From: Dictyostelium discoideum
Taxonomy: Eukaryota
Length of the DNA stretch: 64,000 bases
NCBI GenBank assembly: GCA_000004695.1
Contig: CM000151.3
Span: 6,848,001 to 6,912,000 of the forward strand
Direction of reading: 5' to 3'
The notes under the pieces were generated by a model. The model was not told where the DNA came from, did not search any database, and saw only the letters and a list, made by a program, of their open reading frames with translations. Shown here piece by piece: positions 19,381 through 30,320 of the stretch. The position numbers and the translations under genes are program-made. Positions within the stretch are counted from its first letter, which is position 1, and each line of letters opens with the position of its first letter.

Positions 19381-22420
<3,040 letters not shown>

Positions 22421-23012: not shown

Positions 23013-23507
23013 TTAAAGTTTTGAATAAAATTTTGGTGGTACTTTATAAATGATTTGAGCTGTTGAGATTAAAGAGGAATCATCAGCTTTTTCAATTGTA
23101 ACTTTAGTGAAACATAAAGTTTTTGTTAATTTTTCAACTTGAGCTTTAATAATAATTTTATCACCAATTGTTGCACCAGTGATATAATTTATATTCATAT
23201 TTACTGTAACACCAAAAGTTAATTCCTTTTGATTCTCTTGTGTACATAAATAAGAAAATGCTCCAATTCCATCCATTAAAGTTGCCGATGCACCACCATG
23301 TAATCCATCTAGTGTATTTGTATGTTCTTTAGCTACTGTTACTTCAAATTCAATGAAACCATACCCAATTTTATTCAATTTTAATAATTTTAACAAATTT
23401 ACACTAAATCCTTTATGGTCTAACACTCCTTTGAATGCATTATGAATCTTTTCATTTAATGTATCACTGATTTTATTAATATTATTATTATCGTTATTGC
23501 CAGTCAT
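23013..23507 (-). CDS. Hotdog-fold acyl-CoA thioesterase (PaaI/THEM2, Acot13-like), 164 aa, single exon.
   Basis: HGGASATLMDGIGAFSY ... FGVTVNMNINYI ... GDKIIIKAQVEKLTKTLCF matches the PaaI/4HBT thioesterase signature (HGG...D). Confidence 0.82.
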   Translation of the reverse strand: MTGNNDNNNINKISDTLNEKIHNAFKGVLDHKGFSVNLLKLLKLNKIGYGFIEFEVTVAKEHTNTLDGLHGGASATLMDGIGAFSYLCTQENQKELTFGVTVNMNINYITGATIGDKIIIKAQVEKLTKTLCFTKVTIEKADDSSLISTAQIIYKVPPKFYSKL

Positions 23508-24130: not shown

Positions 24131-24281
24131 AATGTTTTTAGGTAATTATTATTTAAATATTTTCAAGATATTACTTTATGACCAAAATTAATTTTATTTT
24201 TATTTTTCTTATTCAAATAAAAAAAAAAAAAAAGAAAAAGAAAAAGAAAAAGAGAGTTTAAGTGATTCCTCATTTGAAACT

Positions 24282-26346
24282 ATGAATAAAGAAGTAGACA
24301 ATGAAAATATAGAAAATATTAAAAAAGAAGAAAATGAAAAAGAGAATAATAATAATAATAGTAATAATGAAAATTATGAAGATGAGAATAATGAAGATAA
24401 TGATGATAATAATAATGATGAAGATAATGATAATAATGATGATGATGATATAAATATATTATTAATTGGACCAAGTGGAAGTGGTAAATCACTTTTAATT
24501 AATTCAATTATAACCTATATGAGATATGATAGTTTAGAAGGTGCATTGATAGAATCTTCAAATGCATCATTAGCAACAATACCCACAATAGTATCAATGA
24601 GTGATAGTGATGATAATCAATTTAATATTAAAATTGGTACAATTGAAGATTCAGAAGAGGAAAAAAGAATTGTACAATGTAAATCAGTTACAAAAAAGAC
24701 AAAAAAGTATAGAATTAAAAATTCATCAATTCAAGGTAGTAAAACACTATGTTTTATCGACACACCAGGTGTATTAGATAGCGAAGGTATTAGAAAGGAT
24801 GAAGAGAATTTCCATCATATACTAAACGAGATTTCAAAACTTAAACAATTGCATGCAGTTTGTATCATTATGAAACCAAATGAAAATAGAGCTAGCCAAG
24901 TATTCAAATTTTGTATCAATGAATTATTATGCCATTTACATGTGTCTGCTAAAGATAATATATTCTTTTGTCTCTCATCAACTAGATCCATTCATTATAG
25001 AGCTGGTGGTAGTGAGACAAAGAAACTCTTGGCATTGCAATTGGCAAATCTTAAAGAAACACGTAATATTCATATTGAACTAGAGAAAAGAACCTACTGT
25101 TTTGATAATGAATCTTTTAATTATTTAGTTTGTAAAAAGAATGGTGGTAACTTTTCAGAATTTGAAGAATCACTTTATAATCTAAGTTGGACAACATCAG
25201 TACAAGAATTAACAAGACTACTAAAAGATATCATATCTTGTAAACCACATGATATTGAAAAAACATTATCAATTAATTTAGCAAGAACAATGATTAATCA
25301 ACTAATTCAACCAATTACAATTTGTGTTTTTAATATTAATGAAAACTTAAAAGCAATCAATGAAAAGAAAATTGAAATTGAAAATTTAAATCCAGATTTA
25401 GAAATTGATCAATTGAAAAAGAGATTATATACACCATTTGTAAATATAAAATCATTAGAACTCGATAAAAGGGCAACCATTTGTACAAATTTAAAATGTA
25501 TTTCGACAACTGAAAAATTAGTTACAACAAAAGATGGCCAAATTAAAAAACTTGGTTATTGTTGTAATACTTGTAATGCTTCAAGTGGAAAGAGTGTATA
25601 CTCTTGTAAATCAATTGGGTTATTAGGATTTTGTAAAGTTTGTTCATGTTATTTCACTAAACATATTAATATTGATACTATTGAAATTAGAGAAGAAATT
25701 CAATTACCTTTATTTAATGATGATGATGATGATGGCGGTGGTGATTCAAATGAAGAAGGAATAAAATTATCAATTAAATCAAAAGAAGAACAATCAAGAA
25801 TTTCAAAAGATTTTTTAAAATCTTTACAAGATAGAGTTGAACAATATCAAAATGAATTAAATATTTTAACTTGTTCATCAGTTCAATTCTCAAGTTTTCT
25901 TTGTAAAAACTCTTTACTTGAATATAATGATGAAATTGAAAGTTATATTCAAATTTTAATTTCAAATGAAAAATCAAATGGTACTAATGGAATTCAATCT
26001 ATTAAAGATTTAGAAAATTATTTAGAATCTCATAAACAACAAATTGATCAATTTAAAAATAATCTTGAAAAACAAAAAATTCAAAGAGATAAAAAACAAA
26101 AAGAAAAAGAAATTGAAAGAGGTATTTTCTATCAACCATCTGATCAAGAGTTACAAAATGATGAAAATGAATTCAATGATAATGAATCTTTTAAAAGTGT
26201 CACTGAAATTAAATTAAAAATTAATGAAATTTTAAATTTAAAATATTCTGGTAATTTCATTAAATCAAAATTATCTCAATTTGAATCTTTAAATAAATTT
26301 TATAATAATAATAATAATATTAATATTGATAATAATAGTAATAGTA

Positions 26347-26377
<31 letters not shown>

Positions 26378-26474
26378 TGATAATAATAATAATTTTATTT
26401 TAAGTGTAAAGAAAAGTAAAAGAAGTAGTGGAATGTTAAGTAGAATATTTAATAGTTTTAAAAACCCAAAATAA
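24282..26474 (+). CDS. AIG1/GIMAP-like (TRAFAC class) P-loop GTPase with a C-terminal Cys-rich module and coiled coil, 730 aa, single exon.
   Basis: G1 is ILLIGPSGSGKSLLINSI and G3 is FIDTPGVLDSEG. The AIG1-type conserved box follows (HAVCIIMKPNENRASQVFKFCINELLCHLHVSAKDNIFFCLSSTRS, compare GIMAP HAFLLVVQLGRYTEEE...ILFTRKEEL). The N-terminus is acidic and low-complexity. A Cys cluster (CTNLKCIST...YCCNTCN...YSCKS...FCKVCSC) is followed by a heptad-rich C-terminus. Confidence 0.8.
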
Positions 26475-27532: not shown

Positions 27533-27673
27533 ATGAAAATTGGAGGAACCAGATTTAAATTCCTATCAAAATTACCAGACGCACCACCATCACCATCAGG
27601 TAGTAATACAACATCACCAAATTGTTCACCAAATACATCAACATCATCATTACCAATATCACCAAAAACTACA

Positions 27674-27729
<56 letters not shown>

Positions 27730-30320
27730 AAATAAACAAAAATCATCAAAATCATCAATTAATTTAGTATATTCAGATAATCAATCAACACTTAATAGAG
27801 AAATTTCAACATTAATGGAAACTTCACCACTACCATCATCATCATCAACTTCATCATCAACTTCAGCATCATCGTCAACAGTATCATCACCAACCAATTC
27901 ATCAATAAAAATAATAGGATCACAATCTAAATCATCAAATTCATTATTAAAGAAACAAAAATGGGAATCAGATACACCAGAGGATATTTATCAATTATTG
28001 GCGGAACAAAAATTAACAGAACAAATGATTTGGTGTGGTCATCCAGATTTATTCCCAATTATACATCAATATTCAGATATATTAAATGCAAAAGAGAATC
28101 CAAATGGTAGTAATATTCTATCGATTAACCTACCGGCATCAAGTGGTGAATTTGGTGATGTTAAAAAAAAGAGTTATAAAATCGCTAAAAAGTTAACGGT
28201 TGCACAAACTATAAATTTAATATGTAAGAAACAAAATGTTAAAGAACCACGTAAATATTGGTTATCAACATTGTATGGTTGTATTTTAAATGATGAAATG
28301 TTATTATCATCCTATGGATTTGGTACATTTTTCGATTCTTGGGAGTTATCATTAGTGTTGAAACAAGTTTTCACTGATAAAATTCAAACTGATATACCAT
28401 TGGATAGTTGTTATGGTGAATTTGTTGTAGATTTCCTATTACCACCATTGAAACAATTTGGTGGTTTAAAGAAAAAAAGAATTAAAGTCGATTCAAATCT
28501 ATCAATCTCTCAAATATTGAAACAAATTTGTACAAAATATAAAATTGAAGGTTCTGAAAGATTCTCTATTATAACCACTGAAGAATTTCCATTGATTCTT
28601 AATGAAAATTCAACATTGGGTCATTATGGTTTAGGTAATAAATTTCAAACTTTAGAATTATCAATCGTTTTCACTGAACTCATTCCACCCTATTCCCTAA
28701 AGAATAATAATGTCCCAACATTTGGTGCTTTTCAAGTTGGTAGTGTTGATCCAGTACAATCGAAAGCGGTTATCATCGATTTAGAGAATAAACTTCAAGA
28801 TCATTTGAAATTGGGTGAAGAAATGGTTTTACAAATTAAAAATTTAGCTTCAGATTTAAAAGATAAAGAAAGAGAAATTAAAGATAAAGAAGCACAACAT
28901 TTTACAATTATGAATCATATCGAGGAGAAATTAACAAAAATTAGACAAAATGTCACAAATGAACGTGAAGTTCATATTAAACAAATCACTGATATGAAAC
29001 TTGAAAAAGAATCATTACAAGATTCAATTAAACAATTGAAACAACAATTGGAAGATTTAAATTCATTACTTTATCAAGAAAGAGCAATTAATACTGAATC
29101 TACAATCGCTAATAATTTTAAAATTTCAACTCTTGAACAAGATATTCAACAATTGAATGATCAAAATAATGATTTATCAACAACACTTAAAGATACTGAA
29201 AATCAATTAGAATTAACAATAATTCAAAAACAACAAGAATTTCAACAACAAGAAAAAGAGAAATTTGATTTAATTCAAAAATATGAATTAATTATAAAAA
29301 ATTTACAAAGAGAAAATGATGAAAAAATTAAATCAATTTTAGAAAAACATCAAGAAGAATATAATCAACAAGAAAAAGAACAAAAAGAAATTACTGATAG
29401 ACTATTTAATAATTTAGATAATAATATTAATAATAATAATAATAATAATAATGAATTAATTTTAAGTAATAATAATAATTTAGATATTGGATTTAGTTCA
29501 ATTGAAAGAGAACAACTTTTATCATCAATTCAAAGATTAACTAGAGATATTAATGATCGTGATGTGGTGATTAAACAAGTTTATCCAAAGAAAATTCAAA
29601 ATTTAGAATCAAATATAAAGAAACTTGAAGAGAAATTAAAAGAATCTGAAAATATAAATCAACAATCAAAACAAACAATAGCTTTGAAATCTTTGGAAAT
29701 TACAGAACTTAACCGTCAAATTTATTCACTCTCCAAAAATAACTCTGATATTCAATCATCATTGGATCATACTAATGAATTATTGAAAAAAGAAGAAACT
29801 AAATCTAGAAATTTATCACAAGATCTTTCAAATCTAAAGAATCAATATGATTCACAATTACTTTTAATTGAACAAAAATCGCAAACTATTCAACAAATGG
29901 AAATCACAAGAATAGAATTGGATGCCAAGTTTAAAGAACGTGAAACTTATTTACTCTTTGAAATTGAAGAATTGAAAAAACCAAAACCACCTCCACTTCC
30001 AACTTATAAAGTTAATACTCCAAAATCTCCTGATACTGCAAAACATGGTGATATTACTGATGTTAAAAAGTATGTTATTTTTTATTAAAAAAAAAAAATA
30101 TACTTTAAATTTTTATATTTTACTAATTGTATTTATTATTGTTATTATTTTTAGATTATTAAAACCTGTACCAAATTTACCACCGCCACCAAGAGAACAT
30201 ACAATTGCTACAGTTGCCGATTTATTATTTGTTTCAATGCAAAAAAGATTCCAAAGTATTCAAGGTCCTGATATAGAAGATTTGGATGATGACGAAGATA
30301 GTGGTGGTGAATTCATTTAA
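27533..30320 (+). CDS. Coiled-coil protein with two tandem ubiquitin-like (RA/RBD-like) folds, a Pro-rich segment and a short C-terminal exon, about 900 aa. Exons 27533..30069 and 30155..30320.
   Basis: The two ubiquitin-like-looking segments are KKKSYKIAKKLTVAQTINLICKKQNV...YGFGTFFDSWELSLVLK and KKKRIKVDSNLSISQILKQICTKYKIEG...LGHYGLGNKFQTLELSIVFTE. A roughly 400-aa heptad-rich region follows, then PPPLPTYKV...PNLPPPP. The terminal intron is GTATGT...TTTTAG, in phase. The domain call is by pattern only. Confidence 0.72.

Follow-up and report, generated by a model that had tools for sequence, protein, structure and literature searches.

The gene and its domain organization

In a 64,000-nucleotide stretch of Dictyostelium discoideum DNA (contig CM000151.3, positions 6,848,001 to 6,912,000; referred to here as the window), the open reading frame (ORF) at 24282-26474 on the forward strand encodes 730 aa without interruption. 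Its product was 100% identical to D. discoideum AX4 DDB_G0276551, deposited under the name "hypothetical protein", and the gene is a minimal member of a large GIMAP/AIG1-related family, not a categorically new system. An earlier inspection of the DNA letters (the sequence-only reading) had described the frame as an AIG1/GIMAP-type GTPase fused to a Cys-rich putative zinc module and a long coiled coil. The frame was found intact as described, but the gene does not start there: the annotated coding sequence begins 150 nt upstream of 24282, and translation of join(24132..24141, 24235..26474) reproduced the deposited 749-aa protein (P0001) exactly. The deposited protein equals the ORF plus 19 N-terminal residues, owing to a spliced exon 1 of 10 nt (ATGTTTTTAG). 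Residue numbers below are those of the 730-aa ORF.

An AlphaFold2 (AF2) model of the whole protein, calculated on the family alignment, was compact, with a mean predicted local distance difference test score (pLDDT) of 85.8 and a predicted template modelling score of 0.81. The secondary structure elements of the G domain follow the canonical order b1-a1-b2-b3-a2-b4-a3-b5-a4-b6-a5. The two nucleotide-binding motifs reported earlier, GxxxxGKS and DTPG, were recovered as G1 (GPSGSGKS, residues 63-70, nt 24468-24491) and G3 (DTPG, residues 160-163, nt 24759-24770), and the switch-I Thr (G2) is invariant across the family. With the family-wide invariance of G1, G2 and G3, the nucleotide-binding site is intact. 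The G4 position (residues 232-235, nt 24975-24986), in the loop that follows strand b5, reads S-S-T-R and not NKxD or TKxD; the family consensus at this position is F-T-N-x-R, in which the Arg hardly varies, and no [NT][KR]xD motif was found in ORF residues 1-300. A D-N pair after strand b6 (FDNES) is nearly invariant and might substitute for the missing G4 Asp. Judged from the non-canonical G4 (T-N-x-R), the nucleotide specificity may be unusual. Between G3 and G4, the segment HAVCIIMKPNENRAS (family consensus ICILLKPNxxRLT) recalls the GIMAP 'conserved box' hhLLV..GR.T, by eye only.

For the classification of the G domain, the window protein was compared with domain and structure databases together with its relatives. 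The generic G-domain model MMR_HSR1 was the sole Pfam family above threshold for the window protein (28.3 bits). Among 65 homologs, matches were obtained to AIG1 in 49, Septin in 40, RsgA in 37, Dynamin_N in 18 and IIGP in 8, which makes AIG1 the commonest specific family. Its best E-value in this set was 1e-10, and 5.5e-16 was reached in long family members; many members passed the AIG1 threshold, with scores in single relatives of 27.1 bits (P0005), 43.7 bits (P0092) and 30.4 bits (the cyanobacterial member). When the AF2 model was compared with the PDB by Foldseek, GIMAP7 came first (E 1.4e-6), ahead of Toc34, GIMAP2 and GIMAP1 (1e-6 to 1e-4 for the four), so that the fold of the G domain is nearest to the solved GIMAP/Toc structures. 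Membership of the window protein in Septin (PF00735) was supported neither by the threshold of the hidden Markov model (HMM) nor by the best fold match, Dynamin_N (PF00350) gave no match to it, and an NCBIfam scan of it gave nothing meaningful. Sequence searches of the PDB with the whole protein and with the family profile returned only P-loop-level matches (septin-8, Irgb10, ClpX), which were of no help in classification. The assignment to AIG1/GIMAP is thus right for the clade, by its relatives and by its closest fold, and no better fit to septin or dynamin emerged; the Dictyostelium copy itself stays below the AIG1 threshold and is a divergent member.

C-terminal to the G domain, the model places helices 293-319 and 325-367 before the Cys/His module and helices 501-543, 551-565, 568-613, 621-629, 640-651 and 656-673 after it, with pLDDT values of 90-98 over the long helices of the C-terminal domain. 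The family motif PHD..T.S.N.A lies in the post-G helices, and a tail motif, F..FL..N....YND....Y...LI, is common to animal, fungal and bacterial members. Heptad periodicity was above that of shuffled controls (maximum 0.72 vs 0.54 ± 0.08, about 2 standard deviations), and was concentrated in the three long helices, with heptad-like windows at 335-369, 502-544 and 568-601. The heptad-rich helical tail that had been proposed is therefore present, but not as one coiled coil of ~250 aa: it consists of six helices, two of them long (43 and 46 aa). Judged by its shared motif, the tail is a conserved domain and not a generic coiled coil.

The Cys pattern CxxxxC...CCNTC...C...CxxCSC given in the sequence-only reading was found exactly in the translation, with Cys at 401, 406, 427, 428, 431, 442, 451, 454 and 456 and a His at 461; the module that contains it extends over ~383-476 and not 380-450. 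All ten positions of the family membership pattern C-x4-C ... C(H/C)xxC ... C ... CxxCxC-x4-H are present in the window protein. Cys conservation was counted in a 65-sequence alignment, of which 46 sequences cover the module region. C401 is Cys in 45 of these 46 and C406 in 42, and C427, C428, C431, C442, C451, C454, C456 and H461 are Cys or His in almost every ungapped sequence, position 428 being His in most of the family. Non-conservation of the Cys positions was thus not found among these homologs. In a curated alignment of 22 modules, C401, C406, C451, C454, C456 and H461 form an invariant core and C442 is nearly invariant; degenerate members keep a minimal set of eight ligands (C401, C406, C431, C442, C451, C454, C456 and H461). 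Such a set, which includes a His, would fit two tetrahedral Zn sites. The central C(H/C)xxC knuckle is degenerate in the D. purpureum ortholog and in the clade of the paralog DDB_G0285485.

Modelled alone, the module (pLDDT 84.8) showed beta strands and two short helices (5-11 and 34-39), with the knuckles C-x4-C and C-x2-C at the ends of beta hairpins, an arrangement that is locally zinc-ribbon-like. Classical zinc folds (zinc ribbon, treble clef, RING, B-box, C1) gave no structural match to the module, and the zinc ribbon or treble clef fold suggested earlier did not find a counterpart in the PDB. The module is lost in P0037, P0038, P0044 and P0049-P0053 (oribatid mites, metagenome), in which the G domain, the flanking helices and the tail are kept. 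Because two 43-residue helices (325-367 and 501-543) flank the module and the module-less members keep both, it would form the tip of a stalk of antiparallel helices, probably as a dispensable insertion; helices 293-319 and 325-367 would be the outgoing arm of this stalk.

The module appears to correspond to Pfam DUF8206 (PF26633), as suggested by three observations. All 30 of 30 PF26633-flagged homologs contain the module, including truncated proteins without the tail, and homologs without the Cys insert are PF26633-negative; a search with a module-only profile retrieved fragments annotated with PF26633 alone; and in the precomputed domain order of the bacterial member DUF8206 follows the G domain. 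UniRef names these proteins "DUF8206 domain-containing". PF26633 is absent from the precomputed annotation of P0001-P0004 and P0006-P0008, and the Dictyostelium proteins are probably sub-threshold for its HMM. That the module had not been described, as was stated in the sequence-only reading, remains correct for its function and structure, but not for its cataloguing.

The N-terminus is acidic and D/N-rich as had been noted, with 22 N, 12 D and 12 E in residues 1-56 (46 of 56). Unlike many relatives, the window protein has no effector domain there; the N-termini of Dictyostelium family proteins are low-complexity sequence or short unannotated stretches. A signal peptide was not obvious by eye in the annotated N-terminus, and the protein is probably cytosolic. 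In the D. purpureum ortholog (P0003), residues 1-140 form an ordered-looking extension instead of the acidic N-terminus, SAM-like helical by eye; this ~140-residue extension had no Pfam match at E<=1. Near the C-terminus, a poly-Asn tract (residues 674-705) is conserved in D. discoideum and D. citrinum only. The positions of all features are given in Table 1.

Table 1. Features of DDB_G0276551 in window coordinates
Feature	Position	Strand	Basis
Exon 1, 10 nt	24132..24141	+	Splice reproduces P0001; outside 24282-26474
Intron, 93 nt, GT..AG, 11% GC	24142..24234	+	Sequence and splice test
Exon 2 start, acidic Asn/Asp/Glu-rich low-complexity N-terminus	24235..24449	+	Composition; not conserved in homologs
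G domain, ORF residues 56-286	24447..25139	+	
Two long post-G helices, ORF residues 293-319 and 325-367	25158..25382	+	AF2, heptad test, conservation
Cys/His beta-rich module, ORF residues 383-476, putative Pfam DUF8206	25428..25709	+	Conservation, PF26633 tracking, AF2
Conserved C-terminal helical domain, ORF residues 501-673	25782..26300	+	AF2, shared invariant residues, heptad score
Poly-Asn low-complexity C-terminus, short basic end, stop codon	26301..26474	+	

Distribution of the family and its fusion partners

A HMMER search of 1.84 billion cluster representatives with the family profile yielded 6,745 matches at E<=1e-3, 4,458 at E<=1e-10 and 1,682 at E<=1e-30. The best 150 representatives all had E < 1e-180, and nearly all of them cover most of the profile. 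The combination of G domain, Cys module and helical tail, which had not been recognised as described in the sequence-only reading, is not unique to this gene and represents the standard architecture in a family of more than 1,600 sequence clusters. Against PF26633-positive proteins the profile gave E-values of ~1e-100 to 1e-198, those of 1e-100 to 1e-120 with a query coverage of 97-100%, and in all four regions there are invariant residues in common.

Among named members, the Amoebozoa are represented by Dictyostelium species only. Fungal members are from glomeromycete and Mortierella-type fungi, animal members from bdelloid rotifers, beetles, oribatid mites, a millipede, a centipede and the nematode Steinernema, and the charophyte alga Chara braunii also has members. 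Both Steinernema and Rhizophagus have members of the family, and an 'AIG1-like' group described from some nematodes and Rhizophagus (Weinstein et al., 2019, PMC6872716) may therefore overlap or coincide with it. D. discoideum has a second paralog, DDB_G0285485, and thus at least two copies, both without an effector domain. In a rough neighbor-joining tree without bootstrap, all Dictyostelium sequences fell into one clade with two sub-branches. No second family member was found by tblastn within the window. In fireflies, family genes share a contig: P0032, P0035 and P0098 of Aquatica leii have adjacent or near-adjacent locus tags (RN001_014855, _014859 and _014858), and P0028 and P0066 of Abscondita have the adjacent locus tags FQR65_LT06231 and LT06232. 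Likewise, P0049-P0053 of the oribatid mite Oppia nitens are on one 2.9-Mb contig. These shared contigs indicate lineage-specific local expansions.

A scan of prokaryotic genomes with a Dictyostelium-biased alignment found nothing; a broader scan found two matches, both in metagenome-assembled genomes (MAGs), in 185,579 species genomes. Prokaryotic members are therefore rare but real, and the idea of a mainly bacterial family was rejected on this count. The Draconibacterium member is an uninterrupted 1,203-aa gene with the order MACPF_SNTX-DUF7656-GTPase-DUF8206 on a 5.27-Mb contig (L001, 8001-11612). It is flanked on both sides by IS3-type transposase genes, a hint that the gene is mobile or has passed between bacteria and eukaryotes. 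A 701-aa member (L002, 5758-7863), encoded in a Nostocales cyanobacterium MAG, retains the complete Cys module as well as the tail. The gene of an HTH-NB-ARC-TPR STAND ATPase (L002, 1110-3359) is ~2.4 kb away, and three small unannotated ORFs occupy the interval. Such a setting is reminiscent of the gene neighbourhoods of conflict systems that have been described in multicellular bacteria.

In about 70 of the best 150 representatives, the GTPase unit is preceded by 250 residues or more. Among 40 long members sampled, a stonustoxin-type MACPF/CDC pore-forming domain (MACPF_SNTX) was identified in 15 (best E 4e-31) and DUF7656 in 19, and a FYVE finger, a galectin and a protein kinase domain were found in one member each. 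In a sample of six long members, five carried MACPF_SNTX, and one (P0094) contained tandem GTPase units. In addition, a CARD (E 2.5e-8) was identified in P0046 and an ADP-ribosyltransferase (ART, E 5e-11) in P0041. No description of a MACPF-GTPase fusion of this type was found in the literature searched.

DUF7656 is a second Cys-rich domain, with the pattern CPG..C...W.C..C...EYG.D.FYC.CG...F.C...HG, and is absent from the Dictyostelium proteins; in many relatives (e.g. P0110 and P0027) it stands directly N-terminal to the GTPase, after MACPF. Identity of the family with a known defence-system protein was also considered and rejected, as the PADLOC anti-phage models gave only weak, P-loop-level matches (LeoBC, mad8).

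The window as a whole is strongly AT-rich (GC 13-30%) and contains poly-Asn and poly-Thr tracts. Upstream of DDB_G0276551, a 739-aa ORF at 20201-22420(+) encodes a Rap/Ran-GAP (PF02145, E 1e-53) with very long poly-Asn/poly-Thr tracts, and the segment MYIYIYIKKIIIIIKYEILLIYFFYFIYFIDVFIVISP inside its GAP domain resembles an in-frame AT-rich intron that is read through. A 164-aa ORF at 23013-23507(-), divergent to the GTPase gene, encodes a 4HBT hotdog-fold thioesterase (PF03061, E 4e-12). The downstream 851-aa ORF at 27533-30088(+) has no Pfam match; its N-terminus is Ser/Asn-rich, and its long C-terminal region is coiled-coil-like by eye. Gene neighbours were considered as functional context and set aside as uninformative in a eukaryote.

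Proposed function and competing explanations

Taken together, the best explanation, to which a probability of roughly 0.55 is assigned, is that DDB_G0276551 encodes a cytosolic large GTPase of ~85 kDa that belongs, among P-loop GTPases, to a separate branch of the AIG1/GIMAP-Toc-septin group and serves cell-autonomous defence or cell death as a switch or scaffold. The role in defence or cell death is proposed because the unit is N-terminally fused to MACPF, CARD, ART, kinase, FYVE and galectin domains in relatives. The interchangeable executioner and adaptor fusions, the gene clusters and the patchy distribution match the architecture of immune and cell-death switches. Given the same fusions, the innate-defence or membrane-remodelling role mentioned in the sequence-only reading is plausible.

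The family unit would consist of an AIG1-like G domain, a long outgoing helix, the Cys/His module of ~95 residues, and a returning helix with a helical bundle. Nucleotide binding at the P-loop and switches I and II would lead to dimerisation of G domains and to higher-order assembly, which the helical stalk would transmit or stabilise, and the distal, putative two-zinc module would bind a target, be it a membrane, a protein or a microbial ligand. The unit may thereby serve as a nucleotide-controlled oligomerisation switch or scaffold for the executioner or adaptor domains fused to it. Copies without effector, as in Dictyostelium, would act as scaffolds or regulators in a GIMAP-like manner. The roles given here to oligomerisation, stalk and tip are drawn by analogy from GIMAP2 and GIMAP7, Toc33/34, septins and dynamin-like proteins.

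The closest known proteins are those of the GIMAP/AIG1 (IAN) and Toc33/34 group (PF04548), which provided the best structural matches of the G domain and with which the family shares GxxGxGKS, the switch-I Thr and DTPG. Patchy spread and lineage-specific expansions are found in both, those of GIMAPs having been described in PMC8857920 and PMC7053062. Nucleotide-dependent dimerisation and scaffolding is a further, presumed, likeness; passages of PMC3417536 and PMC5884625 attribute GTP-dependent scaffold formation by GIMAPs to Schwefel et al. (2010), and a review calls the GIMAPs an 'incomplete puzzle' (PMC8201404). In contrast to this group, the window protein falls below the AIG1 threshold and has S-S-T-R at G4 without the specificity Asp. 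It is also two to three times larger than GIMAPs: GIMAPs and Toc34 have short C-terminal helices or a transmembrane anchor, whereas the window protein has the DUF8206-type module and a helical domain of ~170 residues, and its relatives carry N-terminal MACPF, CARD or ART. To the DUF8206 (PF26633) proteins it is homologous over the full length, and it agrees with them in Cys/His pattern and tail motif; the Dictyostelium members differ by their divergence and by having no precomputed PF26633 match.

Several points weigh against the proposed role. The Dictyostelium proteins have no effector domain, so that for them the defence role is assigned by association with fused relatives, and the neighbouring genes (RapGAP, thioesterase) give no functional hint. 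The full ORF had no match to Pfam AIG1 (PF04548) even at E<=10, and the trimmed protein scored 19.3 bits against a gathering threshold of 27, at the P-loop only. The guanine-specificity Asp of G4 is absent family-wide, so that the protein may not be specific for GTP. Zinc binding is predicted from ligand conservation alone, and the model of the module, compared with PDB structures, matched no known zinc fold. Finally, literature searches found no mention of the gene IDs, the paralog or DUF8206.

The only serious rival, which partly overlaps the explanation favoured here, is that the protein is a dynamin- or mitofusin-like membrane remodeller with a GTP-driven stalk, in which the Cys module is a membrane-inserting 'paddle' for the tethering, fusion or severing of membranes, and not an immune switch. 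Dynamin superfamily proteins (BDLP, LeoA, mitofusin, GBP, IRG) share with the family a topology in which a G domain at the N-terminus is followed by a helical stalk with a distal tip element, and among them GBPs and IRGs are GTPases of cell-autonomous immunity that assemble on pathogen compartments. The full-length Foldseek alignments to LeoA (E 7e-5) and BDLP (E 1.7e-4), the weak PADLOC LeoBC matches in relatives and the PI3P-binding FYVE finger of one relative also speak for it. The TM-scores of the full-length alignments to LeoA and BDLP were only 0.17-0.20, however, and the G domain, with ~230 residues of AIG1/Toc type, is smaller than the ~300-residue dynamin G domain. Dynamin_N and IIGP were matched by a minority of members, and Dynamin_N not by the window protein; a zinc module is not known from dynamin superfamily proteins, and inspection of the Cys module by eye showed no long stretch of hydrophobic or amphipathic character such as a paddle would have. 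A membrane remodeller of this kind is therefore considered unlikely. Far less probable still is a septin-like filament former that uses G and NC interfaces and whose helical tail would be the septin coiled-coil extension. It draws on the 40 Septin matches among the 65 homologs, one of them above the cutoff (27.9 vs 26.2 bits), on septin-8 as the top PDB sequence match of the family profile (E 5.5e-5) and on the DTPG-x-GD of switch II, which resembles that of septins; that dictyostelids are not known to have canonical septins was also counted in its favour. The Septin matches are confined mainly to the region from the P-loop to switch II, septins lack the Cys module, and the effector fusions, gene clusters and patchy distribution are unlike those of septins.

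The '50S ribosome-binding GTPase' label of MMR_HSR1 could point to a housekeeping GTPase of ribosome assembly or translation, of the Era/EngB class. This is scarcely credible, as MMR_HSR1 is a generic G-domain model, the absence of the family from most eukaryotes and from nearly all prokaryotes (two of 185,579) is incompatible with a core housekeeping function, and the Zn module, the stalk and the MACPF, CARD and ART fusions are unlike a ribosome-assembly GTPase. A different question is whether the Cys cluster holds zinc at all. The ten conserved Cys/His positions with their CxxCxC run, in a module that matches no known zinc fold, would also be compatible with an iron-sulfur cluster for redox sensing or with disulfides. 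We regard this as improbable, since the eight-ligand minimal set with its His fits two tetrahedral Zn sites and the C-x4-C and C-x2-C knuckles at the ends of beta hairpins are zinc-ribbon-like locally; structural disulfides are unlikely because the protein, with no obvious signal peptide by eye, is probably cytosolic.

If the favoured reading of the unit is extended to the whole family, the unit could define an unrecognised class of nucleotide-driven innate-immune or cell-death switches in bacteria and eukaryotes, analogous to NLRs, in which the zinc tip would sense a microbial or damage signal and the oligomers would activate executioners, fused or recruited, such as MACPF pores, CARD signalling or ADP-ribosylation. 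This extension is offered as a tentative and rather doubtful proposal. As in NLR/STAND proteins, to which the analogy is purely functional, relatives combine an N-terminal effector or adaptor, an NTPase and a C-terminal domain; in some genomes several family genes share a contig, and a bacterial member lies ~2.4 kb from an NB-ARC/TPR protein. Unlike in these, the NTPase is a TRAFAC-class GTPase, sensor repeats (LRR, WD, TPR) are absent, and the Dictyostelium proteins have no effector domain.

The gene thus stands for a large, unstudied sister branch of AIG1/GIMAP with a fixed three-part extension of stalk, zinc tip and helical bundle, in which the absent G4 Asp raises the question of the nucleotide used and the predicted zinc module is without structural precedent in the PDB. 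That the unit has been joined again and again to pore-forming, death-fold and toxin domains, in animals as well as in a charophyte alga and a bacterium, argues strongly, if circumstantially, for a part in cell-autonomous immunity. D. discoideum is a haploid, tractable phagocyte with infection models, which makes the function of the core unit directly testable, and if the proposed switch class is real, the presence of at least two copies without effector would make this organism well suited to its genetic study.

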